This document shows, in pieces, positions 16,427 through 58,100 of a stretch of DNA of 64,000 bases (position 1 is its first letter; the number at the start of each line of letters is the position of its first letter). Where the stretch lies: positions 14,083,675 to 14,147,674 of the forward strand of contig OZ037768.1 in NCBI GenBank assembly GCA_964035545.1. Direction: 5' to 3'. The notes under the pieces are model-generated. The model made no database searches. It was given only the letters and a program-made list of their open reading frames with translations, and was not told where the DNA came from. Source of the DNA: Bugula neritina (taxonomy: Eukaryota; Animalia; Bryozoa). The translations under genes were made by a program, and so were the position numbers.

Positions 16427-16444
16427 TGGTGGCAGCGGTGGGAT
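16427..16444 (+). promoter_or_regulatory. Primer-binding site complementary to the tRNA-Leu 3' end
   Basis: TGGTGGCAGCGGTGGGAT, 1 nt after the LTR. It complements the ...ATCCCACCGCTGCCA-CCA end of eukaryotic tRNA-Leu. Equivalent sites at 37535-37552 (E2) and 46110-46129 (E3). Confidence 0.85.
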
Positions 16445-16458
16445 AGTGTACATCAAAG

Positions 16459-17229
16459 ATGGAGACTGAAAATGCTAGAAATCAACCACCCCCAGTAGAA
16501 GGTGAGCGTAGAAATGATGTCAATCCTATGAATCATGTGGGAGAAGAAGCTTATCGATATTGCTTGAAAGCCCCCACCTTTACTGGGTCAGAAGATGTCG
16601 AACAGTTTATACAGGAGTTTAGAGAAGTAATGGATATTGCCCAATGGCCGCATAGAGTGGCCCTTATCCAATTGCGGAGAGCGTTGACGGAGCAAGCCAA
16701 GCCGTACGGAGTAGGAACGAACGTAGACGGGATATTGGCTGCGTTGCGGGCCCGTTTTGGCATCTCCGCAATAGACGCCAGGACCAAGTTACAGAGATTG
16801 TGCCGCGCCCCGCGGACCTCGCTGCAGGAACATGCCGCGACAGTGAAGAAGCTGGCACAAATCGCATATGGCGATCTACCAGCACAACATCAAGAGCGTT
16901 ACACCTATGACGCTTTTGTCCAGTCACTAAACGACCTGGGCCTACACCATCAACTACGAGCTAAAGGGATAACCAGGATAGAGGATGCCCTGAAGGCTGG
17001 AGAAGCTTGCCTGTTGGCTACCCAAATGCATCGAGCGCAAAGGAACCCACCAGCAGTTGGAGTCAATGCTGCCAGAGCTACTGCGGGCCCCGAAGCCCCC
17101 CCTCTGGAAGCCGAAGTAGACCGTATGGTAGAGATGTTGGGACAGCTGGTAACAATTCTGGCCAGCGCTGGCTGGCCCCGGTCAGGCCCTGCAGTTGCCC
17201 CCAGCACCTGTGAGGCCGGGCTGGAGTAG
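16459..17229 (+). CDS. gag: E1 Gag (capsid-like)
   Basis: LKAPTFTGSEDVEQFIQEF...ALRARFG, homologous to E3 Gag. No CCHC knuckle visible; the 3' end is probably frameshifted. Confidence 0.85.
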   Translation: METENARNQPPPVEGERRNDVNPMNHVGEEAYRYCLKAPTFTGSEDVEQFIQEFREVMDIAQWPHRVALIQLRRALTEQAKPYGVGTNVDGILAALRARFGISAIDARTKLQRLCRAPRTSLQEHAATVKKLAQIAYGDLPAQHQERYTYDAFVQSLNDLGLHHQLRAKGITRIEDALKAGEACLLATQMHRAQRNPPAVGVNAARATAGPEAPPLEAEVDRMVEMLGQLVTILASAGWPRSGPAVAPSTCEAGLE

Positions 17230-17617
17230 TGCTGGTCAAGACCATGGACAGCAAGGACGACCCCAACACCAGGGGGCGTTAAACTGTCACGGCCCGCGGA
17301 CGCCATTCCTCCCCGCGGACCGAAACTGAAGGAGCATGGTGGGACACGCCGCCGCCTGTCCGTACGGACACGACGGGACACTCCCCCCAAGTGGCAGGTA
17401 CCACGCAGGACTAGCAGGCCCGCACAGCGGCCGAGTACCTTCTCCCTGCCACTCACTAACCGGTTCCACCGGTTACCTCGGGAAGAGGAGCCCGCCACTG
17501 AATTAGAGCCAGAAGGCCCAGTGGAGAGCTCCGAACCCCGCCGGCACCAACCACGCCGCCGGAAACCCCGTAAATCACGGGTAAAACCCCCGCCGTCCTA
17601 CCCATCCAGGACAACAC

Positions 17618-20600: not shown

Positions 20601-21904
20601 CCGAACAGATACACTCTGATCAAGGCGTGCAGTTTCAGTCCCAACTGATGAGCGACCTTTGCCGCCTCTGGGGAGTAAATCAGAGCAGGACGACCCCCTA
20701 TCACCCCCAAGGTAACGGGGTGGTGGAGCGCAATAACCGGATGCTAGGTGATGCGCTCCGGAGTCTCCTCCTTGGACGCGGTCAAGAGGAATGGGACACG
20801 GTGTTGCCGCAAGTCATGCGTGCATACCGTAGCACCCCACACACCAGTACTGGTAAGACCCCAAACCTCTTGATGCTCGGGAGAGAGACTCGTGTCCCTG
20901 ACCATTTTACCTACCACGTTCCAGAGCTAGACAACTCGATCAACGAGTATGCCAGTGAACTAGTGGAACGGATGAAGGTCGCACACGATATACTGCGCGA
21001 ACAGCAGTGGAAGGTGCGACACGAAGATTCCGAGGAACCACCCCTATACCAGACGGGAGATAAGGTGTGGATGGTCAATTACCGTAGGCGTCGCGGACAA
21101 GCAGCTAAGCTACAGCCTAAGTTCGTGGGACCCTACGTGATCGTCGAGGCGATGCCCAACCATACGTACAAGATTGAGCGCTCAGGACAGGTGTCTATTC
21201 AGAATGAGTCTCGCTTGAAACCGTATTGGGCTAGCCCTGATGCAGTGGGAGAAGCCCCCCGTTGTTGGAGCCTAGAAGGCAGACAACAACGTGTGGGCGA
21301 CGGCGGCAGGGACCTGAATATGAAGTGGTCATACCGCGGGAAGAAGACTTGGTGAGAGATGAGCGACCGCTTTTGACAACAGAAGCGCGTCCGCCACCGC
21401 CAAATCTAATTCCATCACTTCCAGAAACCGAGCCGGTTCCGGAAGTGCAAAACCCCGCGGAGGGAGGGGCTCCATCCGGAGAACAAGAAGAAGTGACCAC
21501 CAACGGTGAAGTAGAGACGCCACCAGAGGCCCCTGCTAATAAACCGGCGAGCGTGTCACCCCCCCCTAGAACGGGGACAGCGTACGAGGAAACCCCCACC
21601 ATATTTAAAAGACTTCGTATGTGACTGCATTAGAAGCGGCACGCATGAAAGTCTAGGGGAAAGCCGTACGGAGAAATGTTGGAGTTGTGATCCCCACGAA
21701 AATATCAACTTTTGCGAGGGCGGAATAGTGGGAGGAATTAATGAGCATAAAGCAAATAGTTCCGACCTCGTGCCACAGAAACGATGCCCAGCCTTTTCTT
21801 ACGCTGACATCGCCAAGGGCAGATGTACTTCACAATTAGCTCCAACCTTACCAAGAACGTTGAGTATGGACACTAATACCGAGTTCACAGGTAAGCCAGT
21901 ATAA
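17618..21904 (+). pseudogene. pol: E1 pol (protease LLDSGC, RT YLDD, RNase H DTDAS, integrase HHCC + DDE + GPY), disrupted
   Basis: ORFs 17618-19744 and 20195-21355 are joined across in-frame stops at 19742 and 19888. Frameshifts near 21259 and 21565 lead to ...ERGQRTRKPPPYLKDF. Confidence 0.92.
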
Positions 21905-21921
21905 GTCTTGTATTCCTATTC

Positions 21922-23004
21922 ATGGAAACAGGCTCGATGCCAGTAAATTCTGAGCTAATTCATCAGATTGAATCAGAATTACTGGGGACCACGTTTCACG
22001 TGAATGACGACGAGGACACGGTAATGGCCGACGGTCTGTTAGACCTGGAGCTAGACACTGTTCTTGGTCAGTCCACACATGATTCACTGGTCTCTCGAGT
22101 GCATTCTAAAAGTTGTGACTCTCAGACTAGTAACAGTCGACAGTCACTAGAATTATGTTGTAAAGATCCACCGCGATCTGACAATAATTCTACTCTTGTA
22201 GACACACTCGCGCCCGTCTCTCCGGGCATGCCTTCCCTAGAGATGGCGTGGGACCCAGAGCCGGCCCCACTAACTTCCACAACTAGACAACTGCCACCCC
22301 AGCTAGAAGCGACCTCTAACTGGACTACCCCTGCCACAGAGACGGAAATTAAGAAATATAGAGGGGATGACAATAACTGCGAGTGCCAGCTATGTCAACA
22401 GCGGTTTACAACCCTTCGTAGATTAAGAGTCCACTTGCCGCAGCATTTTATCACAACGTTCTGCCCCTGCGGGGAATATAGTTATAACCGAGACTATCTG
22501 CTGCGTCATCAACGCACCATGCATTGCTTTCAGGGACACGTATACGACGTGGATAAATCTTCTTACTCAGCATTCCTCGAAGTTATCAGACCTCTCATCA
22601 CCGACCCAGCTCGGCTATCTCGCCTGGAGCAAGGCTTTCCCTCCCCTCGACCCTCACCTCTGAACCCAATGACAAACCTTCGAAATCATCTAGCTCCCCA
22701 CCTCTCCATTCCGTACGTCGACCACAGACGCTTCCCCGTGTCGTACTACAGAGGGTAGACACGGAGACGTACACACTTCCTCCCCCGCTCCCATCTTCAG
22801 AACGGAAAAGACACCGACAGCAGCAGACCTTCTCCCGCTCATCTCCTCTGGCCCGCAACTTACGAGAAGTAGAGACTAGGGCAAACGAACTGGAACAAGA
22901 GGTATATAGACTAGCCCCCCCCCCTCCGCATTCATGCCGCATCCAGTGAGCTCCGGTCACTACAGGAGTCCATCAAACGGATGAAACGAGCAGCCCAGGA
23001 TTAA
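21922..23004 (+). CDS. E1 post-integrase accessory region: acidic segment, two C2H2-type zinc fingers, PxVxL, coiled coil (frameshifted near the 3' end)
   Basis: CQLCQQRFTTLRRLRVHLPQH and CPCGEYSYNRDYLLRHQRTMH, then LPRVVLQRV and LREVETRANELEQEVYRL...LRSLQESIKRMK in shifted frames. Confidence 0.8.
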
Positions 23005-23638
23005 TATGATTTCCCGCTCCAGCCTCCCATCTCACTTCTCTACTACCTCTCTGTGGCATTCCCTAGCGTTACTGTGGCATGTACCCTACATGTAGATAAG
23101 ACTCACCAATTACTTAGTGTCATTTCATTGTGCATATTTTATATATATATATATATATCTCACCAGATTGGTTCCTGTATATACATTTTATATCTTTTCT
23201 CTCGTTAGTCCACTGATGTACCTGGTTACTTGTGAATTATATTTTTTTTTATATCAGAAAGAGGGCTTTCTGCTGGTGGGGGCGGTGTGGTGGCTCGTGG
23301 AGCTACCAACAGCACAATACGCAAGGTCGCGTATTGACCCGGAACAATGTACTCAGCCAATTAGCGAAGCTGCTAGTGAGTAGCAGTAGTTAGCTTCGCG
23401 CTACTAGCCAGTTGTGAATAGTGTAATAGATTAAATAGACATGTAGCGTTCTGAATGTTTTGTATCGTTTTTATTATGTATCTTGGACTCAAAATATACT
23501 CTTATTAACTCGACTTATCTCGGTGAAGTTTCTCTAGCAGGTAAATAGACTCTCTGGATTACACATCAACCCTAATTCTGGAAAACATAACACTTGGAGG
23601 TAGTGAAATTTAACAAATCACAAACTAATACTCTCTAT

Positions 23639-31854: not shown

Positions 31855-33650
31855 CAGGGATGTAGTGGTACCCATACGGTCCCATACGCCGTATGGCCTA
31901 GAAGAAAATAGACTGTTCTAGGCCATACGCCCGTATAGGCATAATTATTTTTGAAAGATGATTAGTGCACAGGATAGTTTTGGCATCCTCACTGAGAATA
32001 TCATAAATTTCGCTCACAATCTAATTTAAGTTCTTGTTATGTTAATGCTATGTGGGTGGCATGCGTGTTGCCTACTTGTGATTGTTTAGCCTGAGATTAC
32101 ACTATGAATAATATGCAGCTATCAACATTTCATCTTCTTATCTCTACTTGTTCACTGAAGCGCGAAGTGCTGCGCATTGGTGATTGCTAAGGAAAAATCT
32201 TTCATTTTCGGTGTATAAATCACTAACTTGTAGAAAATCTATGAAGGCTATTGAAAAGATCAAAAAATTTGCTATGCATAAATTTCTCAGGTTTCCGACA
32301 GTGTTTGTTCTATTCGAATACCATGCTTTCCTGCTGAGATATTTGGCAGGGATTGAAAAATAAACTTTTCAGGTAAAATTGGCTAAAAATGGGTAGATTT
32401 TTGTCTATAACTTTGCAAAAAATTATTGAAAACTCAAAAAACAGGTGCTCTGAGGAACAAGAAGATCCATGTAAAACATGGTTTTTAAATTTTAATTCTA
32501 GCACAATTAAGTGAAGTTTTATTTGGCGGGACTGAATTTTTATAATATACCAATAATGTGGCCTCAGCAAGGCAGTGACAGCTAAAAGGTTGCCCTTATC
32601 TATCTTGTGTGGACTTGCATTTTGTGAATAAGCAATGGAATTTGGAAAAAACCAACATGAAATCCAGAAATAAAATCAAAATGTCTTTAAGAAACAGTAC
32701 CAGGTGTGTAGGAGAGGGTAATGAAAATTTATCACTGAGGTCTACAGCTACTATATCCACATTTTGGTCAAGAACCTAGCGCTATTGCATGTTAATTATC
32801 AATGCAATAAGGTTTTGCAAACTGTACACCACCATAAGTAACCTTTTATATTTGATTGTACCAACGTCTGGCTTTACATTTAATCATCTTCTAGGTTAAC
32901 ACATATTAAACCTGTCAAATTTGTTCTTTTGGGGTATATTTCCTTGATGTATCCAGTGGAAGCTCAGGGGTTTTATTTCAAAACCAAGTTAACATACTCT
33001 TCTTGGGTGTGCTTTATTGTGTGTAAGGAGGTGTGGCGGTATCACCTTATGGGTTAGACTAGTACTCTAATAAACTCCAAATAGGTTTTCAACCAATTTC
33101 TGCTTGCCAGTGAGTTATCAATTCAAATTGCTCTTTATAAATAACCAACACACATTTTCTAATTAGCAATCTTCCTCTGTTCTGATCTATTATTTTTTTC
33201 TGTGCATGGCAGTGTATTAGTTATTTAAAGTAATCAGGTTGCATTTGGAGAGCACTTGTTACCTGCCTCTATCCTTCCATCTTTTTGAGATATTCAGCAA
33301 TTTTTCTGCACAGGTTGGACTTAGTGTCAGAACAAACCTAACTGCAGCTGAGTAAGACTACATTACATTACATTACAGTCAACAGGTATGAGACAAGACT
33401 GAATATTTATATAGTTTGCAGCAATGCCCAGTCGTCATGTAGCTGGTATGGTATGAAAATAATAGTGAGGTGCACATTTCAACACATATTTTTTTCAGAA
33501 GAATTATAATTCACAATGGCTTTAAATTGCATAAATTTGCATCAGAAGCGCTCTGAGGGCTTCGGCGGCCGGGGCACTGCCCCGGGCCCCGCCGGGGGCC
33601 TGGGCGGCTCCCTGGACCCCCGGCCTGAGAGTATGTTCGCCACTACATCC

Positions 33651-34801: not shown

Positions 34802-35974
34802 TTACGAGGGCTTGGTTTTGTTCTTCAATCTATGTAAGGACTCCTTCAGGAGGTGCAGCTCATTGGTGGCTGCCAAAACCTGGGGAGTTAGATGATGTAG
34901 CTGGTCCTCCAAGGTGGATAATCTGTTTTCCACCTCGCGGATGGAAGTAGCAGAGGCAAGGGTGGACGTCGAAACAAGGGACGGGAAGTCTCTGCTCTTT
35001 CTCTTCTGGGATGTAGACGACATGGAATCTTGAGAATGGGACCGCTGGGCACGGTCCTGGTGTCTAGCCGGGGTAGCATTGGTGTCAAGCCGCTGCAGCA
35101 TCACTTTTGGAGACTGACGAGGGGGAGGAATCTGGCTGACTTCTTCTTCTTTCTTCTTGTATCGAGGGGGCCTGGGCACCAGTCCTTCTGTGATAGAACG
35201 AGGGGGGGGGGTTGGAAACTTGCGAGATAATCGATTTAGCTTGCTGGGATCTTGCACTAGGGGCCAGATGACGTCAAAGAATGGGGCAAACGTCTGTTTA
35301 TCCACGTCGAAGACATGGCCCTGGACAGATCTCATCGTCCACTGGTGCCGCAGTATGTAGTCATGGTGATAAGTAAACTCACCGCAGCGGCAAATAGTGG
35401 TCACAAAGTGCTGGGGCATGTGCACCTTCAACCTCCGTGGAGTTGTGAATATCTGCTGACACAAGTGACATGTTTAATTATCCAGGTCCCCTCTCACATC
35501 TAGAATCTTCTGCTCGGTAACTGCGGCTGCCCAGCATAGCCGTCGCTGAAGGATGGCTGGCAGCTTCTTTGGAGAAGAGGTGGAGTTGGTAACAGGGGCA
35601 GGAGAGGGTTGCCGCTCTGGTACTGGATCATCATCCCAGACGATGTCTGGCGACGACAGGACACCTGACGAAGCAGGTCGAGTGATATCTAGAAGAGCAG
35701 AATTAGTGTTAGATCGACATGGATCTTTACAATGTAATTCATGTGAAACTTGACTTTAAGTAGCTCGAGAGTCACAAACTCCTCTATACGACACTCGCGA
35801 GACAGATGGCAGCGATGTAGACTGACTGAAAGTCATGGATTCTAGCTCAAGATCTAACAGATCGTCGGCCATTACTATGCTTTCGTCGCCATTCACCGTT
35901 GTCAAAGTTGCCAGCAAGTCTAACTCAAATAAATTAATTGAGTCAGAGTCAGCTGACAATAAACTCATTTCCAT
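34802..35974 (-). CDS. E2 post-integrase accessory region (acidic segment, zinc fingers, PKVML, coiled coil), partly disrupted
   Basis: ORF 35756-35974 (MADDLLDLELE) and ORF 34802-35464 (CQQIFTTPRRLKVHMPQH, CRCGEFTYHHDYILRHQ, SPKVMLQRL, IREVENRLSTLEDQLHHL). Confidence 0.78.
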
Positions 35975-38900
35975 TTTAATAAGAATACTAGATCTAGGTG
36001 GCTTACCTCTAAACTCAGTATTTGGAAGTATACTTGAACGTTATATTCAGCCCGCTGCTCCGCCCTCTCAAAAGTCCCTTTCGCTTTTGGATGCACAACT
36101 CCCACGCTGTTCGCGGCAACTCTCGGTAGAGCCCAGAGCTTGACTTGTTGATCTACCGTTTTGCAGGCAGTCGCAGACGAAATCTTGCAAGTAAGGCGGA
36201 GGTTGCCGCGACCGCTGACTTCTCTCCAGAAACAGCGGGGACTCCTCGGGTAGACTCGCAGGATCCACGGGGGAGCTGCCTGAACAGGGGAGCCATCACT
36301 AGCTTCTGCCTCGCCGTTTAGGGTAGGACCGTTCTCTGAAAGAGGGTCCTGACTTCCTGGCCCGGATTAGGCGCAGAGAGTAGCAAGACTAGAGTGGCTA
36401 CTGGAGGCGACGGTCTTTCCTCCGGAGAAGGAGGTGGTCGCTCGTCTGTCACCACATCCCTGTCCCGCGGCATGACCACTTTATACCCCGGTTTGTGCCG
36501 TATCTGCTCTCGCATCACTGTCTGCCTCCTGGGCTCAAGCAGCAAGAGTGCTGCATCTACCGCATCGAGGTGAGGCAAAATACGGTTTCAAGCGAACCTC
36601 ATTCTGGATAGACACCTGCCCTGAGCTTTGAATCTTGTACGTATGATTGGGCAGAGCCTCAACTACCAGGTTGGGCTCCACGAACTTGGGCTGTAACTTA
36701 GCCGCTTGTCCACGGCACCTGCGATAGTTGGCCATCCAGACCCAGTCCCCCCTGCTAGACGAGAGGCTCATCAGATTCCTCGGTCTGTATCTGCCATTGA
36801 CTCTCTTGAAACATTTTGTGTGTGGCTCTCATGCGCTCTATCAACTCCTCCACATACTCATGTACAGAGTTATCATGGTCAGGAACGCGGCTTCTGTGTA
36901 ACTGAGTAGCCAACAGATAAGCCTCACCCTCCCGCAGTGCGTCTTTGACCATCGCCACTCCCCTCGCCAGAAAGTGCTGATGGAGCCCTAGGTCATTCAC
37001 CAACTGCACAAAAGCGTTGAAGGTGTACCGCTCACGATTAACGGGTGACAGGTCACTATGCGCAATTTGCGCAAACCGTTTAACTGTGGCGGCATGTTTT
37101 TGTAGGAAGATGTGCGGGTCGCGCCGCAACCCTTGTAAGCGGACTCGGGCATCTACAGCCGAGATGCCAAATTGAGCCGTCAGGTCCTAACCCATTGGGT
37201 TTGGCCTTATCTGTCAACGCTAGCTGCAGTTGCAACAGGGCCACACGGGGTAGCCACTGGGTGACGGCTACCACGTCACTAAACTCCTGGATGAATTGTT
37301 CCACATCCTCATTGCCAGTAAAGATGAGAGCTTTCAGACAGTACCTGTAGTCAGGTAGTTCTCTGTGAGCCTCCTTGCCCGGCGGCACTGGGTTTTTAAT
37401 TTGGTTTGCGAACTCACCTTCATCTTGTCACGGAGGTTGCGCAGGTTCTTCTGCCATGGTGGGTACTCCATCGTCGTGCTCTGCCATTATAATCCTTATT
37501 TATTGTCCAGATAGCAGTTGCATTGCACACAATTCTCTCACTGCTGCCACCACTGTTGTAGTTTTGTGCATTACTAAGTTGGGTGTTATTGTGTGCTGAT
37601 AATTACTGCATATCCACTGTGAGGTTATGTGAAGAACCGAACTAGTTGATCAGTTAACAAGAGAACTGCGTTGTTAATCAATTACGCACTATCAAAAATC
37701 AGGTATAAGTATAAGAGAGAAAAGAGTACAATAGCTAAAACAGTTACATAAAGTTAACCTAGTTATCTACTACTACTGTCCATGACTGCTGTGGGCGCTG
37801 AACGGCATTGCTTATATATACAGAGTGGATCCTGATTGGATGACACAAGATTCCGGCGGTGTCATCCATAGTTACTGAGAGGGCACCGCATAGACATGTG
37901 GCAAGAGCTTGCGGAATTGTCGCCCTTGACGTTAGTTTCATTATAATCTATAGAGTCATGTTTAGCAGAGGACACGGGGGTATACTGTTGTAGTTTTATG
38001 AATTACAACTACTTGCGGGTATTATTGCGTGATTGACTACTGCATCATTAGCGAGGTTATAACAGAACCGAGCGTGTGGATTGGAACGATATAATTATAT
38101 TAGTTACAAAAGATACAGAACAAAGAAGTTACATCAGTCAATAAAAGACAAGAGCACAATAATACAAAGGTTACCTATCTAGTTATTAGCGTGGTTCTTA
38201 ACTGCTGTGGGCGACGGCTGGCGCTGTTTATAAGTGTCAGGTCACGTGTTAGATGTCAATACTAAGCCTAGGGCCACACGGTGCGTATTTTCGCATGCGA
38301 AAATTGAAATCACAAGTAGCAAAGGTGTCTACTGTACGCGTTGAGAAAACATTTGCACTTGTCGCTCAGCATTCTCCACGCAAGTGCGAATCGTCTCTGT
38401 TGTCGTCACCTAATTGGCTTGTAGTTATTCAGCGAGCCCAATTTCTTTAGTTTAGTGCTACATTCCAGTAAATTGCGTTTTATTGAAAGCGAGTGCAATT
38501 TAAAAATGAAAGTTTTATTTATCACGCATCACTGACGCTACAGTGTGTGATAGTTTTGTGGGTTGTGAATGAAACTAGTGCTTTACATGCTTGTTATGAG
38601 AAACAAGGCGAGAAATAAGGTAGAAGGTAGATAGCTTTATTGTAGTATAGTCCGAGTGAATCAATGGTCTTTGTCCAGCGAGCTCCAGTAGTAGACTGAA
38701 CTATACTGGAACTCGCTGGCTTTTATATACATGCAGGACAAAGACATTCCTTTGTTTGCCGAGATCGGAGGCCCGAAATACCGAATATCGGCACTTCGGG
38801 AATCCGAAATGCCGAATCCGGCATTTCGGTACTTCGGTATTCCGATATGCCGAGAATCGGCATATCGGTGTTTCGGAGGACCGAAGTACCGATCTCGGCA

Positions 38901-39272
38901 ACAAAGGACACACACACACAACATAAATTTACCACACACACCCCCCATCGGAAAGCATGCTTTCCGATAAAGAGGCGTACGCAACACAAACACACAACAG
39001 GGAATGACACGACAATAAAACACACAGTTGATAAGTAACACACACAAAAAAAACAATACGGTAACATGCAGCGACATTAATAATACAATGATAACAACAA
39101 AAAAAAACAGGGAAAATTGTGCACACACAAAAAAAACAGAGCATGAATAGGTACATACATTTCACGAAGAACTTACACACATATATAAAAAAAACAAAGA
39201 AATAAGATAGGAAAGAAAATACTATACAAATAGTCTCAGCGGCGGTCTCCAGATCGGCCCCGCTTCAGGCGC

Positions 39273-41261
39273 CTAACACGTCTCCAGCTCCTCCTCATAC
39301 CTGCGGAGCTGCCGGCGGAGATGTTGTACCTCCTCTGCTAACTGGGCCGACGTCTGGTGTCTGGAGCGGTCGGTGGCACCATGGGTAGGACGTCGCTGGC
39401 GGTGCGTCTGCTTCTCGCCCGCCGCCGAGGGTCGGGGGCCCAGGTCCGATGAATCGGTCCTGGCGCCTGGTCCGACCCGTGCCAGCATGACCCGAAGTGG
39501 CTGGGTGGCTGCCGGTTGGGGTGTCGCGGCGGGCTCCCCTTCTTCTTCCCGAACAGGCCTACACGCGGGGAATCCCAGGGCGAGAGCAGCCCGTTTATGG
39601 GGATCCGCCACGTGTGGCAGCACCAGGTCCCGAAACTCGGGAAAGGAGGCCTGGTTTACAGCAAACGTGTAGCCTGTGTGGCAGTGAGCTATGCGTTGAT
39701 GTCTCAACACATAGTCTCTCTGGTAGGAGAACTCCCCACACGGGCAAAACACGTTGATGTAGTGCTGTGGGGCGCGTACACGCAACCGCCGTGCAGAGGA
39801 GAACTTCCTCTTACACTCATGGCAGATGCGGTTGCCCGGCTCACCGCAAGCTTCACCAATCTTAAGATTGGTGGGTCCAGTCACCCAATACTGGCGGGCG
39901 ACCAGGGCCCGAGGCAGGGCCAGTATTGGGGAGTTGTCTTCTTCTGCTGGCAGATGGTCGCCGTGTAGGATGCCCTGCTCCTCCCCGGCCGTGAGCTGGA
40001 GCTCGACCGGTTTGGGGTCAGGGCCACTAACGATGGCGGAACACACCTCTGTGGAGGAGGTTGCGGCCTGCTGGCTGGTAGAAGCCGAAGCAAGGGCTGG
40101 TGGGAGAGGGGAGTCGGACCGACTGGCCTCCTCAACGTCCATACGCTCCTCTAGAATAGATAGTAGAGGCTGTGAAAAGCCGGTCTCACTATCGCCGAAA
40201 TTCGGCACAGGTGTGTATGGAGTTAAATTAAAAACCGAGGGCCGAGGTGTATCGCAGAAATTGACTGAGCCTACGTCGTGATTTAACAAAGTATCAATGG
40301 CAGAGTCATCTCCAAGATCCATCTCGGCCTCCGGTTCTAAGAAATCAGAACCAAGTAAGTCTAGTAAAGACCAGTCTACTTTAGTTTGACTAGACTCCGT
40401 AACTGGAGGATCTAATCTAGAAGAAATACCTGATTGCGTGTCTGGTAAAGTAATTCCCATAGCTGCTGATAGCGTTTGGAGAACAGTGTTAAAATCAAAA
40501 TGAGTATTAGAATCAGAATTTAGCTTGAGCTGTAACTGCCGTGCGAGCTGTGTGAAATCAGAATGAGAAATGGCCGAACCTCGTGCTTCAGAAGTTTTAC
40601 CTGCTGAAGCCCGAGTCGCGTGGCTCGTGGGAATTTCCCCCGGATTTCGAAAAGACAACTCGCGTGATCGAGTGTCTTCCGAAATTCGGTCGGCCATTTC
40701 TTCTTTTTGGTGGAATTCTCCGGGGTGATGGAGGGAATTTCCAACCAAGATGGGGTGATAGTCAGTGTGGGGGGGGTCGTCCTCAGGAGGGGGCCACTCC
40801 AGGTGCCCTACAGCATAGTCTGCCAGGTACCTGGGAGGTCTTCTTGGCCGCTGGCTCCTCTCGAGTGGAACAGGCACTGGTGGTGTTGGTGGCTCCTGGG
40901 CTGCCCTAGTAGGGGGGTCCCCGTCTTCACCCCGTACGGGGGTGGGGGTGTCCTCCCCCGAAAAGGGTTGTGATCCAAGGGCTTGCCGCTGTTCCTGTTC
41001 CCGCTCCGCTCTCTGCTGCCGCTCCAGCTGCTCTATCAAGTCGGCCTGCTCCTGGTCCGTCTCCCTGGGGACCATAATCTCCACCTCTCGGGGCTGGGTG
41101 GCCCGTCCTCGACGGTTGGGCTGACGGTGGGGCTCCAGGAGGGGTGGAGCCTGACCCACCGCGTCTGGGCTGGCATGGTAAGGTTTGAGGCGCTGCTCGC
41201 TCTGGACAGAGATCTGTCCAGAGCGCTCCACACGGTACGTGTGGTTGGGCAGCACCTCCAC
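39273..41261 (-). CDS. E3 integrase C-terminus fused in frame to a ~500-aa zinc-finger / coiled-coil accessory extension
   Basis: 662 open codons. They run from the GPY/F module (VEVLPNHTYRVERSG) through ERSQRPRRPPRYLADY, LLDLLGSDFLEPEAEMDLGDD, CHECKRKFSSARRLRVRAPQH, CPCGEFSYQRDYVLRHQRIAH and PLRVMLARV to LAEEVQHLRRQLRRYEEEL. Confidence 0.88.
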   Translation of the reverse strand: MEVLPNHTYRVERSGQISVQSEQRLKPYHASPDAVGQAPPLLEPHRQPNRRGRATQPREVEIMVPRETDQEQADLIEQLERQQRAEREQEQRQALGSQPFSGEDTPTPVRGEDGDPPTRAAQEPPTPPVPVPLERSQRPRRPPRYLADYAVGHLEWPPPEDDPPHTDYHPILVGNSLHHPGEFHQKEEMADRISEDTRSRELSFRNPGEIPTSHATRASAGKTSEARGSAISHSDFTQLARQLQLKLNSDSNTHFDFNTVLQTLSAAMGITLPDTQSGISSRLDPPVTESSQTKVDWSLLDLLGSDFLEPEAEMDLGDDSAIDTLLNHDVGSVNFCDTPRPSVFNLTPYTPVPNFGDSETGFSQPLLSILEERMDVEEASRSDSPLPPALASASTSQQAATSSTEVCSAIVSGPDPKPVELQLTAGEEQGILHGDHLPAEEDNSPILALPRALVARQYWVTGPTNLKIGEACGEPGNRICHECKRKFSSARRLRVRAPQHYINVFCPCGEFSYQRDYVLRHQRIAHCHTGYTFAVNQASFPEFRDLVLPHVADPHKRAALALGFPACRPVREEEGEPAATPQPAATQPLRVMLARVGPGARTDSSDLGPRPSAAGEKQTHRQRRPTHGATDRSRHQTSAQLAEEVQHLRRQLRRYEEELETC

Positions 41262-41326
41262 TACACAGTAGGGGCCGACGAACTTGGGCTGAAGCTTAGC
41301 CGACGTCGCCTACGGTAGCTCACCAT

Positions 41327-44300
41327 CTAGACCCAGTCTCCCACTTGGTACAACGGGGGCTCCTCCGAGTCCTCTGTGCGGGTCTGCCACTGCTGGGTAC
41401 GCAGCGCATCATGAGCTTTGCCCATGATGTCCATCAGACCCTCCACATACTCGTGTACCGGTGACTCGGGGGCAGGAACATGGTACGCCAGGTGTTCCGC
41501 GACCCGCGTCTCTCGGCCTAGCATCAGGAAGTTTGGGGGCTCCTGCGTGGCGGAGTGTGGTGTGCTGCGGTAAGCCCGCATGATCTGCGGCAGCACCACG
41601 TCCCATTCTTCCTGACCTCGACCAAGTAGCAGGCTCCGGAGCGCGTCACCCAACATCCTGTTGTTCCGCTTGACGACTCCGTTCCCTTGCGGGTGATATG
41701 GGGTGGTCCGACTCTGGTTCACCCCCCATATCCGGCAGAGGTCTCCCATGAGCTGGGACTGGAACTGGGCACCCTGGTCCGTATGTATCTGCTCGGGCAA
41801 ACCGAGGTAACAGAACACATGTTGGTCCAGGGTCCGGGCCACCGTGGGGGCGGTTGCGTCTGGAATAGCCAGAGCATCCGCCCACCGGGTAAAGTGGTCC
41901 GTGAGCACCAGTATCCAGGTGTTCTCTCTGGCGGATAACGGCATAGGCCCGACGAGGTCTACCGCCACTACTTGCCACGGTCGACCAGCGTACAGCCGGC
42001 TTCGACCAGTGGTTTCCGTGGGGCGGCCATGCTTGCTAGCTTGGCAGACCTCGCATTGCCGTACCCGCAGTCGTACGTCCCGAGTCATTCCGGGCCAATA
42101 CCAACGCAGCCGCAGACACCTGATGACCCGACTGACTCCAGCATGAGCCTGCTTATGGGTGTCCCAGATCAGTTCCCGCCGGAAGGCGCGTGGACAGACG
42201 ACGCGGTCCCTCTTCTGCTGGCGGTTGTCTGCTGCTAACGTTATCATCAGGAGGCCATCAGGACTGACCTTGAGGGCATCCCAGCGACGACAGAGGAGTT
42301 GGAACTCAACGTCTCCCTGCCGCTGCTGTTCCTCGCTAGGCCGTCGGCCCTCCTTCTTGGCCCGGAAGATGTCCGCTACCGCGCCGGGTAGCGTCTCCTG
42401 GAGTCGGCACAGCTCCTTGACGTTCTGGTGCAGAGTAGGGTTGGCGTGGAGCGCCTGGACACCGTCCTGGTGGGTTTCGGTCCGAAGATGGCCGTGCTCC
42501 CACTGGTAGGCAGTGCCCTCCACTAGTTCTGCTTCCACGTCAAGGCGAGCGGGTCCCCCGTCCCGCTGTTCAATGTGCAGGCATTGCTTACAGTCCTCTA
42601 CCGGCCGGCGGCTTATGCCGTCGGCGTTCCCATGCTTCTGGCCTGCACGGTGCTCTATCCAGTAAGAGAACTCGGCAAGAATCTCTAGCCAACGAGCCAC
42701 CTGGCTCGAGGGCTCTGCACGTTTACACAGCCATATCAGTGATGCATGGTCTGTTCGCAGACGGAACGATTTCCCATACAGATATGGCCGAAAGTGCTTG
42801 ACCGCCTTGACTACTGCTAGAAGTTCCTTCCTAGTGGTGCAGTAGTTCTTCTCGGCGGCCGCGAGAGTCTTGCTGTAGTAAGCCACGACCACCTCACTTC
42901 CACCCTGGACTTGAGACAAGACGGCTCCCACGCTGTGGTCGCTGGCGTCGGTGTCCAGGATGTACTCCTTGGCTGGATCAGGATACGCCAGGATTGGCGC
43001 TTCCATTAGCCGTTGCTTGAGGTGGTCGAATGCCTGCTGCTCCTCCTGTGTCCACTGCCACCGGACTCCCTTTGCGGTCAGCCGATTTAATGGCTGAGCC
43101 ACTCCTGCGAACCCAGGTATGTACTGCTGGTAGTGCCCTACTAGGCCCAGGAAAGCACGCAACTCAGGGAGGTCACGGGGGACAGTCCACTCCTTCACAG
43201 CTTGTACCTTCTCTGGATCAGTAGCGACTCCATCACGGCCAACCACATGGCCCAGGTACGTGACTTCTGGCTGCAGGAGTGCACACTTGGAGGGCTTCAG
43301 CTTCAGTCCAGCAGCCCGGAGGCGGTCAAAGACCTCCCGTAGACGACTGACATGAGTCGAGAAGTCCGGGGAGATGACAATGACATCGTCCAGATAGATG
43401 AGGAGAGTCTTACAGTGTAGCCCACTGAGGACTTGCTCCATGAGTCGTTGGAATGTTGCCGGAGCGGACGTTAGTCCGAATGGCAGTACTTTCCATTTCC
43501 AGAGCCCGTCGCGAGTAGTGAATGCTGCTTTGTCCTGGGCATCAGGACTGAGGGGCACTTGCCAGTACCCGCTAAGCAGATCCAAAGTACTGAAGTACTT
43601 GCTACCCGCGAGGGCATCTAGAGACTTATCTATCCGTGGGAGAGGGTAGGCGTCCTGGATGGTAACGCTGTTGAGTCTGCGGTAGTCCACACAGAATCTC
43701 CAGCTACCATCCTTCTTCTTGACCAGGACCACTGGGGAGCTCCACGCACCGTGGGCAGGCTCAATCAGATCCCGGTCCAGAAGATCCTGTACCTGTCGGC
43801 TCACCTCCTTCTCCTTCTCCGGGCCTAGACGTCGGGTAGGCTGCCTGATGGGAGTGGTGCCGGCTGCCAAGGGTATCTCGTGGGAGATGACCTTTGTCAG
43901 CCCCATGTCTCCATCGCCACGACTGAAGACATCACTGTACTCCGCGAGTAGTTGAGCCAGTACTTGGCGTTCAGTACTACTCGTACAGTTTCCGCATGCT
44001 CCGCCATACAGGTCAGCCAAGTGCTCCGGGACTGCTCCTCGTCTGGTGTGAGGGGGGTTCCCCTGGGTGTCGGTCACTGTCTCCAGTGCCGGACCCACAT
44101 CCGCTTCCTGGATGGAGTGGTACTTCCCCACCAGCGCTCCGGCCGATAATCGGACAGGTTCCGTGAAGGGGTTGATGCACTGCACGAGGAGCTCTTGCCG
44201 ACAATCTAGCCGATTCAGGCTGTTTGCTAGTCGGATGGCTCTGTGCGTTCCTTCAACCATCCCCAGGCCGGCGATCCCCTTGCAGTTGACTCTGCATCGG

Positions 44301-45183
44301 AGAGTCGCCTGGGACCTCCCCGGAACTGTGCAGTCCCGCACTACCTGGACTCCGCCTACCAAGGGTCTGCCAAACTTGTCAACACAGACAAGTTCCTTCC
44401 CAGCCATCACCACCACTGACTTCTGGAAATCCATGTGACACTGGTGTTTCTCCAGGAAGGGCATTCCCAAGATGGCGTCCTCCTTCAGCTGGCTGACTAT
44501 GAACGTCTCGTGAATTGCTTGATCACGGACGCGTTCAGGCAGTGAGATGACGCCGTAGAAAGGAATGCATGATGCGTCCGCCAACGTACCATGCGCACCT
44601 TCATACGGCTCGAGGCTCGCCTGTCTCGAGCCCCAAGAGTGTCAAAGAGACGCCGACTCAGCAGGTTGGTAGTGCACCCAGTATCCAGTAGGAATGTGGC
44701 AGCTTTACCCGAAATCTTCCCGGGCAGGAAGTAGCTGCTTCCGTACGGCTGGGTGCTCCTGGAGCGGTCAGTCTCTGGGGGAGACACAACTTGGGTCCGC
44801 ACAGCGGGCCTCCTCTTCGTCTTAGAGACAACGGGGGTTTTCTGAGGTCGGGAGGGTAGCTTGGGGTACTCTTGCGAGTAAGCTGAATCTTCCTCCACAA
44901 CCTCCTCGGGCAACCCCGCGAACCGGTTACGGAGTGGCCAGGCTGGAGGATCGGGTAGACCTTGCGGTCTCCGAGATCTCCGCGGTGCCTGCCATCCGGT
45001 TTCTTCTAGCTGCATCCGGGTATCGAGTGGCAGGGCAGGAGGATCGGGTAGGCCTTTCGGTCTCCGAGATCTCCGGTTTGCGTGCCACTCGATGTAGGTC
45101 GACTCTGGAGAGGTCTCTTCTGTTGTCTTCCGAGTCCTATCCCAGACCAGATTGGCGTGGGGCCCACGGGTGGCGGAATTCAC
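41327..45183 (-). CDS. pol: E3 pol (PR LLDTGC, RT YLDD, RNase H, integrase); one frameshift near 44600 and a TGG>TAG stop at 41327
   Basis: ORFs 44497-45183 and 41327-44584, closely similar to E1 pol. Confidence 0.93.
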
Positions 45184-45204
45184 CGTGAGCCTCGGGTGTT
45201 TAAA
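45161..45204 (-). promoter_or_regulatory. -1 programmed ribosomal frameshift signal (T TTA AAC plus stem-loop)
   Basis: The heptamer is in gag phase, followed by a 6-nt spacer and the 9-bp stem GGCTCACGG/CCGTGGGCC. The -1 frame continues into pol (HPRLTVNSATRG). Confidence 0.85.
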
Positions 45205-46079
45205 GGCTTCTGTCCCTTAGGGCAGTGCCTTCTCACATGTCCTGGCATCCCGCACTCCCAACAAGTGGGCGGAGGGGGGCGGACAGGGTCGTCCCGCGAG
45301 CGGGGAGCCCGCCTGTCTGTCTGGTTGCGCTGCAACTCCGCCACCGTAGCCTGCAGGCCTTTCATCATGCTCATCAGCATGTTGAGCTGCGTCTGCTCGG
45401 GCGACGGAGTAGCTGCTGCTGCCACTTGTGGGGTTGGGGGTACCTCTTCTGTATCTCCGGCCACCTGGCGAGCTGCGTAGTTCGCCCTCCGTGGTTCTTC
45501 TACTTGGAAGTAGGCCTTCCCCATCTCTAGTGCCTCGTCCAGGCTCTTGACCTTCGCGGCCAGCCAGTACCGCTGGAGGTCCGGGTGGTTCACGCTCCGG
45601 AAGAATGCGTTAAAAACGAGGCGCTTCCGATCTTCGCCAGTGGCGTGACCGAAAGCAGCCTGAGCCAGGCGCTCTACCTCGTTAGCGTGATCTTCCAGAG
45701 GTGTCCTTCGGTCTCTCCTCATCACTTGTAGCTGGTCTGACGCCTCTTCCGTGGTTAGGCCGAACCGGGCCCTGAGAGCCCGCAGGATGTGGGCTTCGTC
45801 GGGTCCCAGTGCGAAGTTCCTGGCCCGGCCTGTTAGACAGGCCCGGAGTTGGAGGACGCGCACCCGTACTGGCCATTCAGCGGTGGTGGCCACGTCCTCG
45901 AACTCCTTGATGAACTGTTCCACGTCTCCATCTCCTCCGAAAGTCGGGGGCTGGAGGCGATACCTGTCACCAGGTGATGCCTGTCCTTGCCCCCGCAATC
46001 CTTGGAGGGCTGTTACCAGCGCCTCGACAGTGAGGGCTGGTGTTGCTGCTGCCTCAGGGGCTGACTCCCCTGGGGCCAT
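45180..46079 (-). CDS. gag: E3 Gag with CCHC zinc knuckle
   Basis: LQPPTFGGDGDVEQFIKEF...ALRARFG...CWECGMPGHVRRHC. Confidence 0.92.
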   Translation of the reverse strand: MAPGESAPEAAATPALTVEALVTALQGLRGQGQASPGDRYRLQPPTFGGDGDVEQFIKEFEDVATTAEWPVRVRVLQLRACLTGRARNFALGPDEAHILRALRARFGLTTEEASDQLQVMRRDRRTPLEDHANEVERLAQAAFGHATGEDRKRLVFNAFFRSVNHPDLQRYWLAAKVKSLDEALEMGKAYFQVEEPRRANYAARQVAGDTEEVPPTPQVAAAATPSPEQTQLNMLMSMMKGLQATVAELQRNQTDRRAPRSRDDPVRPPPPTCWECGMPGHVRRHCPKGQKPLNTRGSR

Positions 46080-46784
46080 CCTATTCCTCTCAGCAACTAG
46101 CTATTCGTAGAATCCCACTGCTGCCACCAATGTGATAGTTTTGTGGGTTGTGAATGAAACTAGTGCTTTACATGCTTGTTATGAGAAACAAGGCGAGAAA
46201 TAAGGTAGAAGGTAGATAGCTTTATTGTAGTATAGTCCGAGTGAATCAATGGTCTTTGTCCAGCGAGCTCCAGTAGTAGACTGAACTATACTGGAACTCG
46301 CTGGCTTTTATATACATGCAGGACAAAGATATTCCTTTGTTTGCCGAGATCGGAGGCCCGAAATACCGAATATCGGCACTTCGGGAATCCGAAATGCCGA
46401 ATCCGGCATTTCGGTACTTCGGTATTCCGATATGCCGAGAATCGGCATATCGGTGTTTCGGAGGACCGAAGTACCGATCTCGGCAACAAAGGACACACAC
46501 ACACAACATAAATTTACCACAAGTGGACACCTTTGCTACTTGTGATTTCAATTTTCGCATGCGAAAATACGCACAGTGTGGCCCTAGGCTAATTGGCGGG
46601 TAGCTTCTAGTATTATGCATCCACGCACGTTGTCCGTCCCATATGAAGTGGGAAGACTAGGGTTGAAACGCTAGGGCTAACTAGTCTACAACTATAAACT
46701 ATATAATACATGTCAAGTAGAGAGGGCAGAAGAGTTCCCCCTTTCATGAGCCATTACAATACTTCCCCTAACAATTACACCATA

Positions 46785-47190
46785 CATGCTAATTATTTAC
46801 CAAAAATTTTAAAAATAGCATAAATTAAGTAGTATTACTATGCTTATTTGCATCCAATTTACTAGTCTTACATTTATGGCAATTGTAATGTATTTTGTGT
46901 AAAATGGTTAATTCAAGCATTTTCTATTCATATCCACATTGTAATCAAAGCGAAACTTAAACTTTATCGCTTTGTATTTACGTGCATGAATGAGTTTTAA
47001 AATTGTTTTTAATTTTATATGCATAAAAATGTGTTTAAAAACTTTAGCAATAAAAAAAAATGTACACATAAAATAAAAAATAAATAAAATAAGTGGCAAA
47101 ACTTTCCCTTTATAACTTTTATAAACTCGCGGCACAGACGTGGCATAATGATATTCCAAATTTTTTAAAGCCGCCACTCTAGATATCTAT
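46785..47190. repeat. Orphan arm of the foldback-element family
   Basis: Diverged copy of 48339-48776, inverted relative to 47206-47642. Confidence 0.75.
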
Positions 47191-47205
47191 TATCTCTGGG
47201 TCACG

Positions 47206-47639
47206 CAGAGTGGTATATATTAGGAGTGTTGACATTAGATAATCTTATGAAATCATATGGGCGCCATTATGCCGAGATTGGTACCGCGAGTTTACATAAG
47301 TTATAAAGGAAAAATTTTGTCACTTTTGTTATTTTTTTTCTATTTTATGTGTACATTTCTTTTAGTTTTGTTTATTGGCAAAGTTTTTAAACACATTTTT
47401 TATGCACATCAAATTTTTAAAAAAATTAAAACTCAATCATGCACGTAAATACAAAGCTATAAAGTTGAAGCTTCGCTGTGATTACAATGTGAATATGAAT
47501 TGAATAATGCTTGCAATAACCATTCTACACAAAATTCGTTACAGTTGCCATAAATGTGAGACTAGTAAATTGGATACAAATAGGCACGGTAATACTACTT
47601 AAGTTATGCTATTTTTGAAATTTGTAGTAAATATTTGGC

Positions 47640-47721
<82 letters not shown>

Positions 47722-47738
47722 TATATTATATATATATA

Positions 47739-47792
<54 letters not shown>

Positions 47793-48230
47793 TATATTAT
47801 ATATAATATTATTATATATATAATGTATATAATTTAATATATAATATAATAATATACTATATATGATATTATTATTATATATATAGTATATATATATATA
47901 TTATATAATATATTATATAATAACATATTATATATGATATTATTATATATATATAATATAATATATAATATAATATTATAATATATATATATTATATATG
48001 ATATTATTATTATATATATAATATAGTAATGTATAATATATTATTATAATATATATATATATATTATATATAATATAATATATAATATAATAATATATTA
48101 TGTATGATATTATTATATATGTATATAATATATATATATATATATAATATAATATAATATATAGTATAATAATATATAATATATTATTATAATATATATA
48201 TATATATATATTATATAATATTATTATACT

Positions 48231-48278
<48 letters not shown>

Positions 48279-48776
48279 ACAATATATAATATATAATAAT
48301 ATATAATATATTATTATAATATATATATATATATAATACATGTCAAATATTTACTACAAATTTCAAAAATAGCATAAATTAAGTAGTATTAGTCACTAGT
48401 ATTACCGTGCCTATTTGCATCCAATTTACTAGTCTTACATTTATAGCAACTGTAACGTATTTTATGTAAAATGGTTATTGCAAGTATTATTCAATTCATA
48501 TTCACGTTGTAATCACAGCGAAGCTTAAACTTTATAGCTTTGTATTTAGGTGCATGATTGAGTTTTAATTTTTTTTTAAATTTTATATGCATTGAAAATA
48601 TGTTTAAAAACTTTACCAATAAACAAAATTAAAAGAAATGGACACATAAAATAAAAAAAATAGAATCACAAAAGTGGCAAAGTTTTTCCTTTATAACTTA
48701 TATAAACTCGCGGTACCAATAGCGGCATTATGATTTTTCATGGTTCAAAGTCAACACTCCTAAATATACCACACTG
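47206..48776. mobile_element. Foldback-type DNA element: ~440-bp inverted arms around a TA-rich core, 8-bp TSD (hAT-like)
   Basis: Termini CAGAGTGGTATA / TATACCACACTG. Flanks GGGTCACG / GGGTCAAG. Arms 47206-47642 and 48339-48776. Confidence 0.82.
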
Positions 48777-55100: not shown

Positions 55101-58100
55101 GGGGGCCACATCTGGCCCTGGGGCCGCCTGTTGGACAGCCCTGCTCTAATCTATCATAAAAATGCTTCAAAGTAAAGCAGATGTAGTTGTTTTGTGGAAA
55201 GGAAGAATATGAACAATGATGACTTGCTTTTATCTCTAATTGCTAAATCATAAGTTTTTATGAGTAGTTTCTGACCAATTTCAAGTCACAGTTTTGGATA
55301 ATAATATACAGAAAGTGCTAATAAACTGATTCAAATTACCTATAACAGAAACAGAGGTATTTCTGAAAAAAGTATGTCTAGGATTTTAATATGGCAGCTT
55401 CAAACTAGTACTCCACTACAGTGATTACTGGCGAAACAGAAACCCTTGTACTGGTAGTACCCTTGTACTGGTAGTACCCTTGTGCTGGTAGTACCCTTGT
55501 ACTGGTAGTACCCTTGTACTGGTAGTACCCTTGTGCTGGTAGTACCCTTGTGCTGGTAGTACCCTTGTGCTGGTAGTACCCTTGTGCTGGTAGTACCCTT
55601 GTGCTGGTAGTACCCTTGTGCTGGTAGTACCCTTGTGCTGGTAGTACCCTTGTGCTGGTAGTACCCTTGTGCTGGTAGTACCCTTGTGCTGGTAGTACCC
55701 TTGTGCTGGTAGTACCCTTGTGCTGGTAGTACCCTTGTGCTGGTAGTACCCTTGTGCTGGTAGTACCCTTGTGCTGGTAGTACCCTTGTGCTGGTAGTAC
55801 CCTTGTGCTGGTAGTACCCTTGTGCTGGTAGTACCCTTGTGCTGGTAGTACCCTTGTGCTGGTAGTACCCTTGTGCTGGTAGTACCCTTGTACTGGTAGT
55901 ACCCTTGTGCTGGTAGTACCCTTGTGCTGGTAGTACACTTGTGCTGGTAGTACCCTTGTGCTGGTAGTACCCTTGTACTGGTAGTACCCTTGTACTGGTA
56001 GTACCCTTGTACTGGTAGTACCCTTGTACTGGTAGTACCCTTGTACTGGTAGTACCCTTGTACTGGTAGTACCCTTGTGCTGGTAAGCTCTCCCCATTGC
56101 CTAAGCAAATTCTTGTTACGCTGAAAACTTGCAGACTATTGCCTAATGGTATATCTTTAAAGTGTTGGGCTTATTACAAAAGATATTTTTCAATTTTGTT
56201 TGGTTTCCTTTATGCATCTTTTACTGAGCAAGTAGCAAATAGAGTGAATGCAACTAACATTGGCTGTCTGCTTTTGCTAGTTTCACCAAATCTGACTGAC
56301 CTGAAGCTGTGAGTGGAGTTTATTCACCAGGGTATATATCATTTTGAATAAATTTGCTATGGAGAGCAACAGTGTATGCTAATTTTGCAATAATAAAATT
56401 AAAACACATAAAATGAAGTGCTATGAAATAGTTGTGATGTTATTCATAATATTCTTATACTGGAAATATTGTTTAACCTTGCTCTCGCTTATACAAGTGT
56501 TGATTGTGGCATAGAGAAAAACTAGATAGTTAATATCATGAAAATGTTAGTACTTGATTGTTAAAATCATCTATAAGTTGACCTGTAGCTTTACTCACAA
56601 TTATCATCATATGCTATGAAAATAACTACTTAGACTATTGTTTTTTTATAAATAAAATTCGATTGTAATTGCTAGTTTGTATATTATGGAAGTGGTGTAA
56701 TAATTTAATTTTTATATATTGCCTAGTTTTTATTTTCCGTGTTGATTTTTATTTTGCAGTTTCTTTTATTGCGTTTTGTTACTTCTAATGTGGCATTGAA
56801 TCTGACATGATAACAGTGATTTACAACTATACAATTACAGCTATTGGCGTGATGATTCATTTATGTATATTATATATCATTTTCTAGAGCATGGTGAAGT
56901 TTCTAATCAACCTTCAAATGTTTCCATTTTATATACAGGCATGTGACCGGTTGCCCGTGCAGAACAACTGTAAGCTACCATTTGCAAACTCAAGAGTGTA
57001 TTCTACTCCAGTAACTAATATTCATCAGCTCTCGGCCAATGAACCTTCTGTAAAGAAGACCTTGCTGGTTGCGCTGGACTGCAGTGTACGAGAATTTATA
57101 CTAATTATATTAACTATGGTCTATTCTATTGTAGTTTATAGCTGTTGTATAATAATTTGGTATGTTATTTGTATAATCTTTGGAGTTAATGGATACAATA
57201 CCTGCGTTTAACCTTGTACCATTTTCTGGTTTTATGTAGGAGTTTGCTGAGGAGTATAAATCAGGTGACAGTTTCAGCATTATTTCCCAAAATGATGATA
57301 GAGAAGTTCATTGGTTACTAAAGCGGTAGGTTTGGTCTCTCCTTGATACATTTGTCAAGTTATAATTTTTCACAAGACATGATTTTATAAAAATTTGTTG
57401 ACACTGAAATTAATTCCAACTTTTTTATGACAGTGAATAATATTCTTTTTTTTTGTCACTTTTATTTGCAATGAATAAATAAGGAAACTTATATAATTTA
57501 ATTATGTCTATGGTTGTGTCACTACTGTCATAGGCAACACAATATTCTCGTATTTTGAAATATATTTTTAATTTAGTTCATCTTTTACACTGTTGCTTTT
57601 AGCTGATGATAAATTAAAAGGCACACTTTTAAATTTGGTTTCATTTCCTTTTGCTTAGGTTGGATGTAAAGAACGCACATGAACTTGTGAAGTTATCAGT
57701 GAGCGCTGATACTTTGAAGAAGAGGGCTGTGTTACCAGAATACATTAATAACCCTAGTAGTCTGTATGAAATATTCAGTTACAGCTTGGATTTCAGAAGT
57801 ATTCCTAAAAAGGTTTGAATAATGTATAAGCTTATCAACATGTTTCTTAGTGTCAACGATTACTATTGCCTATTCAATTCAACTAATTAGACTTAATGCA
57901 GTCATTTCCAACACCTCAGAATGTTGAAATTGATTAAGGAGTGGCTTTTGGCTACATCTTTATGAAAGCAATGCTGCTATTATGTGTTCTTACATTTGAG
58001 TTAGAGTATTTGAACCAATTGTTCTGGTTTTGGATAGGCCATGATGCGACTGTTGGCCAGGTGGTGTAAAGACCCGGTAGAACAAAACAAATTAGAGATT

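Follow-up and report, generated by a model that had tools for sequence, protein, structure and literature searches.

What is encoded when the pol frame of a Ty3/Gypsy element stays open for some 500 codons past the tail of its integrase? The question is raised by a 64,000-nucleotide stretch of Bugula neritina DNA (the window), which is AT-rich animal-type DNA holding three related LTR elements, E1, E2 and E3. An earlier note on this DNA had described the extension in E3 as a transcription-factor-like module, with an acidic segment, two zinc fingers and a coiled coil, into which the integrase continues. Self-encoded transcription regulators, such as Tat and Tax, mark complex retroviruses; in the open literature we found none for an animal Gypsy element. 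In this Ty3/Gypsy family the pol frame goes on beyond the tail of the integrase into an unnamed module that is under selection, and the frame, the order of its parts, purifying selection on its core, its wide spread and its presence in bryozoan genes that have no pol are all observed. We tentatively explain the module as a DNA-binding regulator of transcription that is encoded by the element and made as a tail of Pol and probably also from a start of its own, a reading to which we give somewhat less than an even chance.

The elements and their parts

E3 carries the hallmarks of Ty3/Gypsy: LTRs that begin with TG and end with CA, a primer site, a purine tract and a flanking target duplication of 4 bp, together with gag followed by the order PR-RT-RNase H-IN, a Gypsy-type RT and a GPY/F piece. 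The best solved relative of its RT-RNase H-integrase frame is Ty3 Gag-Pol (E 1e-117), and its primer-binding site is presumably of the tRNA-Leu type. The parts of E3 and the matching regions of E1 and E2 are as follows.

46131..46521, minus strand: E3 5' LTR, TG...CA, 391 bp, with 19 CCGA/TCGG words
46112..46129, minus: primer-binding site, nearly identical across E1, E2 and E3
45183..46100, minus: gag frame, in which a CCHC knuckle scores below the zf-CCHC cut-off (E 0.017)
44500..45216, minus: frame of the N-terminal part of the aspartic protease, disconnected from the next frame in the E3 copy
41330..44641, minus: RT, RNase H and integrase core (H2C2, rve), with a stop at its end (~41326) in E3
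39273..41309, minus: 678-codon frame, integrase C-terminus plus extension (stop-free 41309-39276)
41139..41309, minus: integrase GPY/F-SH3 C-terminal piece (below the Pfam cut-off for SH3_Tf2-1, E 0.004)
40815..40850, minus: tail motif R..R.PP.YL.DY, residues 154-165 of the 678-codon frame
40461..40814, minus: linker of 118 codons, poorly conserved, stop-free
40275..40460, minus: acidic-hydrophobic segment (14 D/E and 2 K/R in 62 residues), opening with the conserved internal Met (40460)
40151..40600, minus: candidate phase-1 intron (GT 40600, AG 40151) spanning the Met and the acidic segment
39555..39914, minus: core domain of ~110 residues (W-containing piece, fingers 1 and 2, V-D strand, two helices, GFP)
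39762-39824, minus: finger 1 of the core
39681-39746, minus: finger 2 of the core
39360..39413, minus: basic patch, putatively nuclear-signal-like
39276..39350, minus: C-terminal coiled-coil helix, shortened in E3
38546..38936, minus: E3 3' LTR, with a G-rich purine tract just before it
21581..23004, plus: E1 tail-to-module region, broken by frame changes (tail motif 21581; 90 open codons; GT 21891; ATG 21922; AG 22204/22240)
22291-22650, plus: E1 core, with the coiled coil in further frames
34802..36214, minus: E2 tail-to-module region, one frame with several stops (tail motif; GT 36006; ATG 35974; AG 35689; core; coiled coil)

All three elements are broken copies. The two LTRs of E3 differ at 1 of 391 positions, against 12 of 307 in E1 (whole element 16121-23592) and 40 of 431 in E2, from which most of pol is deleted; E1 and E2 are older than E3. 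The little LTR similarity first reported among the three was borne out by blastn, which found no cross-match. A CCGA/TCGG array is present in the E3 LTRs (19 words) and a related LTR fragment (11 words) and absent from the LTRs of E1 and E2; its sites, at 46341-46485, 38756-38900 and 15184-15340, may be a factor-binding array or a hairpin.

The surroundings of E3 are themselves layered. At 37554-46782 it lies inside a short, high-copy inverted-repeat element (38263-38545 plus 46522-46590; its contig depths sum to 1900-4200), itself inserted in an LTR-like piece (37987-38262 plus 46591-~46710) that in turn lies within the 5' LTR of E2. Elsewhere the window holds an exon from a saccharopine dehydrogenase gene of the host (1200-1655, minus strand; Pfam PF03435, E 6e-11) and, at 46782-48665, 12979-15170, 31946-32865 and 55289-56170, inverted-repeat elements whose centres are TA-rich, MITE-like pieces that are repeated, and a 17-bp tandem array.

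Continuity with pol

The E3 frame from 41309 to 39276 (minus strand) is open for 678 codons, 513 of them beyond the tail motif, in agreement with the ~500 first claimed; over 2000 shuffles of the stretch, the longest open run averaged 110 codons and reached at most 312. Because the integrase core of E3 lies in a different frame that ends in a stop, the integrase is seen to continue into the module only through its C-terminus, whose GPY/F-SH3 piece is 73% identical to that of E1 over 55 codons. In contigs of other copies the length differs from E3 near this stop and frame change, so the break is probably specific to the E3 copy. E1 and E2 have frame changes or stops that separate the tail from the module, and no protein joining integrase core and module was found in the databases, the longest of the best 150 having 596 residues.

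Evidence that tail and module belong together comes from relatives. The strict tail-motif pattern matches two of 211 proteins, E3 and P0071, which, aligned from the tail motif to the end, are 41% identical in 551 columns; looser motifs in frame with the core are discernible by eye in P0200 and P0118, the latter joining tail motif to core without an acidic part. The 118-codon linker of E3 was open in 29 of 5000 shuffles, and the 90 codons that follow the tail motif of E1 in 36 of 5000. P0142 overlaps this open stretch of E1 (E 3e-5) and reads on through the conserved Met, as do P0075, P0125, P0192 and E2, all of the E1/E2 type. Given the open linkers and the overlapping copies, continuity between pol and module is likely a family trait under selection; the Pol extension proposed earlier is continuous by the overlap of several copies, but not in any single intact one.

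Layout of the module

The order of parts seen in E3 recurs, as had been claimed, in E1 (from the ATG at 21922) and E2 (from the ATG at 35974). The Met with which the acidic part opens, not included in the earlier note, is kept in eight of the nine sequences that read through from upstream (E2, E3, P0071, P0075, P0117, P0125, P0142 and P0192; lost in P0179), always before a G-initial codon. A strong translation start requires such a codon in the next position (the Kozak rule). Of the 40 proteins that begin at this Met, 38 do so by the choice of a gene caller and are thus not evidence of a start. In four relatives the first 55 residues contain 10-13 D/E and 1-4 K/R, and the acidic segment has a pN/pS of 0.51 (0.34-0.82); by this measure it is itself under selection.

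We scored the flanks of 37 distant proteins with 23-39% core identity, leaving short flanks unscored and using thresholds that we set ourselves, once. An acidic-hydrophobic window preceded the core in 15 of the 26 proteins that could be scored and followed it in 4 of 22; a heptad helix followed the core in 11 of 18 and preceded it in 2 of 20. The order of acidic part, domain and coiled coil is therefore kept in distant relatives, which supports the layout that had been called transcription-factor-like. For full-length P0005, AlphaFold predicts disorder over the first ~110 residues except for one short helix (8-21), a core with pLDDT ~95-98, and a single long C-terminal helix at residues 316-364. 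The heptad coiled coil is present in E3 as described, but it is ~15 residues shorter there than in P0069, P0070 and P0071. The reported lack of a signal peptide or transmembrane helix holds: the E3 frame contains no hydrophobic stretch, its highest hydropathy over 19 residues being 0.83. An env-bearing Gypsy element (errantivirus) was rejected on similar values (0.67-0.88 in the best window of five element-type proteins) and on the zinc-finger model of the core.

The core domain

The alignment of the core consists of 107 rows chosen for covering it. Finger 1 is a C2H2 finger, C-x2-C-x12-H-x3-H, with its ligands in 103-105 of the rows; its first His is Arg in E3 only, as noted before, and His in 103 of 107. 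For finger 2 the earlier pattern, C-x-C-x12-H-x4-H, has to be replaced, the proposed last His being present in 3 of 22 rows, whereas a Cys five residues past the preceding His (C200) is present in 88 of 107, giving C-x-C-x12-H-x5-C. A 5-residue hydrophobic linker separates the two. C153, C156, H169, H173, C179, C181 and H194 each occur in 100-107 of the 107 rows, and the same seven ligands in 45-47 of 47 distant rows; W132, G182, V208 and D209 are found in 94-100 of 107. The helix of finger 1 is conserved as a basic one, with R/K at 164 in 90 of 107 rows and R at 165 in 80 of 107.

Protein-level constraint, as had been suggested, is evident in this region. The cores of E1 and E2 share 56% identity, and over 108 codons their pN/pS is 0.31 (0.23-0.41) at a pS of 0.86; for E1 against E3 it is 0.40, and across comparisons it ranges over 0.31-0.44 with synonymous sites saturated. 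For comparison, values were 0.12 for RT/RNase H, 0.18 for the integrase core and 0.74 for a mis-framed pair. Judged by these ratios, the core domain is under purifying selection.

AlphaFold models the 120-residue core with pLDDT 94.6 and pTM 0.85, and the W-containing piece, both fingers and the downstream helices are confidently predicted to form one compact domain and not a finger array, a correction to the earlier description of the two zinc fingers. No Pfam family fits the core (weak zf-C2H2 scores in 10 of 107 members), sequence matches in the PDB cover finger 1, BFVD yielded no match, and Foldseek with the core model returned nothing at E 0.001 (best PDB entry E 0.16, TM below 0.4); the module is, as had been proposed, without a match to a described family in these searches. 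The nearest structures, none significant, are nearly all DNA-bound C2H2 proteins; the best RNA-binding one has E 0.82. A classical tandem Kruppel-type array was considered and rejected, since finger 1 fits and a second classical finger and a TGEKP-type linker are absent. A chromovirus with a chromodomain was likewise rejected, as Pfam scans of the E3 frame and 107 relatives contained no chromodomain family.

Relatives and bryozoan genes without pol

A search with the E1 open reading frame gave 68 relatives among 754 candidates (65 JGI, 1 ENA, 2 Logan), and a profile search gave 308 representatives at E 0.001 and 132 at 1e-10 (50% clustering). When 30 proteins were looked up, four clusters named an organism, in every case a bryozoan. 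Watersipora subatra XP_067940963 and XP_067940964 carry two core copies (E 1e-78 for the latter), and the other bryozoan members are XP_067944745 of the same species and KAF6040922 and KAF6040923 of B. neritina, the two Bugula genes having consecutive locus tags. These genes, absent from the earlier note, contain one or two core copies and no pol domains, and two of the uncharacterised proteins have a C-terminal heptad helix. In a midpoint-rooted tree of the core, XP_067940964 adjoins the E1-E3 clade (support 0.87) and the other bryozoan genes are distant. P0178, P0213 and P0225 (Watersipora, Bugula) appear by eye to share an unnamed N-terminal piece beside the core.

Splice-like sites

In E1, E2 and E3 alike, a donor-like GT lies shortly ahead of the Met and an acceptor-like AG beyond the acidic part, and every one of these sites is in phase 1. 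Strong donor-like GT sites also lie near the gag start, at 16502 in E1 (phase 1) and 37417 in E2, as in env-type splicing, and no splice joint was seen for either. The ~125-nt block (42 codons) that ends at the AG has a pS of 0.26 and a pN of 0.31 between E1 and E2 with no codon-position bias; it is conserved as DNA and not as protein, and is a likely cis-element. P0030 lacks ~48 residues of it. Relatives carry L, S, V or I at the AG in 65 of 65 cases, followed in 64 of 65 by a G-initial residue, and these residues are compatible with a kept YAG, third bases being unseen in protein data.

The suggestion that the module is spliced thus finds sites in three copies but no joint: in contigs of an E2-like relative from X3 and X6 (~89% alike, depth 13-16), which we guess to be RNA, none of 14 joints matched the candidate sites and neither a short nor a spliced RNA of the module was seen. 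These contigs read through the acceptor unspliced, and one from X3 also reads through the donor.

Discussion

If the module is the transcription regulator that we tentatively favour, it would most likely activate the element itself. Because the linker is kept open, the module would be made as the tail of Pol, and a shorter RNA would in addition give a protein of ~360-400 residues that starts at the conserved internal Met. The coiled coil would then serve dimerisation, the basic patch nuclear entry, the finger helices DNA binding and the acidic segment the recruitment of co-activators; in the weakest step, splicing or a second start would remove the acidic segment and yield a non-activating form. 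In the fullest version the two-zinc domain would activate the element both when attached to Pol and when made from a start of its own, an intron that covers the acidic segment would supply a repressor, and the domain family would have moved between elements and bryozoan host genes; as a whole this is rather improbable.

The regulator draws its support from an acidic-core-heptad layout that is kept in relatives distant from the three copies, from the retained Met and the selected acidic segment, from the basic finger-1 helix with its mostly DNA-bound, non-significant structural neighbours, and from a core that works outside the integrase in pol-free Watersipora and Bugula genes. Against it, the canonical finger linker is absent and no fold match is significant, so DNA binding is argued by analogy; the LTRs have no detectable common sequence although the cores of E1 and E2 are similar, and hence offer no visible shared target, and the CCGA/TCGG array is confined to the LTRs of E3 and not those of E1 or E2; and the contigs guessed to be RNA contain no short or spliced form. 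A free regulator, moreover, would not need the open linker, whereas a domain that stays on the integrase and anchors the integration complex at a DNA motif or on a chromatin protein would. Such a targeting domain, which we regard as somewhat unlikely, would fit a module that is in frame with the integrase tail in E3 and P0071, loosely so in P0200 and P0118 and by overlap, not in a single intact copy, in the E1/E2 type; its position matches that of known targeting domains as described in PMC3059260, and E3 is nested in other elements inside the E2 LTR. But this nesting is one window, the core lies ~400 residues past the GPY/F piece behind disordered sequence, no protein with both integrase core and module was found, and the internal Met, the acidic segment in distant relatives and the pol-free bryozoan genes would be left unexplained.

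Other functions fit parts of the evidence. If the element is spliced, a Rev-like regulator that binds, and exports or protects, its unspliced RNA would be needed, and the phase-1 GT and AG sites of all three copies, the phase-1 GT near the E1 gag start and the block conserved as DNA (against a core pS of 0.86) agree with this. We take the Arg-rich patch, oligomer helix and Leu-rich acidic motif to resemble Rev-type parts; the Leu-rich export patterns are loose, however, RNA-binding structures score poorly, and the spliced form was not seen in the putative RNA contigs, which leaves the proposal quite improbable. A factor that is directed at the host, countering silencing or mimicking a host zinc-finger factor and binding host proteins instead of the element promoter, would account for rapid divergence outside the core and for the same domain in host-type genes, three of whose products appear to have an extra N-terminal piece in common, yet no known silencing suppressor in Pfam or BFVD matched, and we consider it improbable. 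The existence of host-type genes with the domain and the broken state of E1, E2 and E3 could also suggest a captured host fragment carried as a neutral passenger, but the near-invariant zinc ligands, the low pN/pS of the core and its retention in two or more subfamilies whose LTRs are unrelated largely refute this, and it is very improbable.

Known systems offer partial parallels. According to PMC3059260 and PMC9289625, chromodomains and the CR motif are targeting domains at the integrase C-terminus of Ty3/Gypsy chromoviruses; like them, the module is an extra conserved in-frame domain after GPY/F, but it has no chromodomain match and is a multi-part sequence of ~500 residues with its own conserved Met, a two-zinc domain and a coiled coil. 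CopiaMBD of centipedes and spiders, for which a targeting role has been proposed (PMC6673714), is likewise a lineage-restricted LTR element whose in-frame chromatin- or DNA-binding domain is common to host genes; it is a Copia element with a known MBD family and demonstrated binding, whereas ours is a Gypsy element with an unnamed domain known from sequence. Acidic trans-activators and internal promoters have retroelement precedents in foamy virus Tas and Oikopleura Tor env (PMC517496 and PMC4402516). Tas/Bel1 is the functional model for the regulator reading: it too is nuclear, with an acidic activation part and a position near the 3' LTR, but it is a separate ORF with a C-terminal activation part (PMC517496), whereas the module is in frame with pol, shows no sequence match and would be a regulator by analogy.

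Bdelloid LTR ORF3s and plant aORFs, as presented in PMC5408684 and PMC7264820, are also family-specific extra coding sequences between pol and the 3' LTR, of env-like, GDSL, DEDDy, coiled-coil/TM or antisense kinds, with regulatory roles proposed for the plant aORFs. The words zinc and zinc finger are absent from the main texts of these two papers, and zinc finger occurs 0 times in that of PMC13524379, on env elements in Bryozoa. The uncharacterised pol-free proteins XP_067940963/4, XP_067944745 and KAF6040922/3 carry the same core. In the open literature we found neither such a module nor bryozoan Gypsy elements with zinc fingers; supplements, subscription journals or Repbase could hold the family.

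The module is a real accessory part of a Gypsy family, is under selection and is apparently undescribed, and its core, being small and well predicted, is directly testable. On either reading, an unnamed zinc domain of ~110 residues that is common to uncharacterised bryozoan genes is defined. If it tethers the integrase, it would be a new and possibly sequence-reading targeting domain; if it is a regulator, a self-regulatory circuit of this kind would have arisen separately in Gypsy elements.
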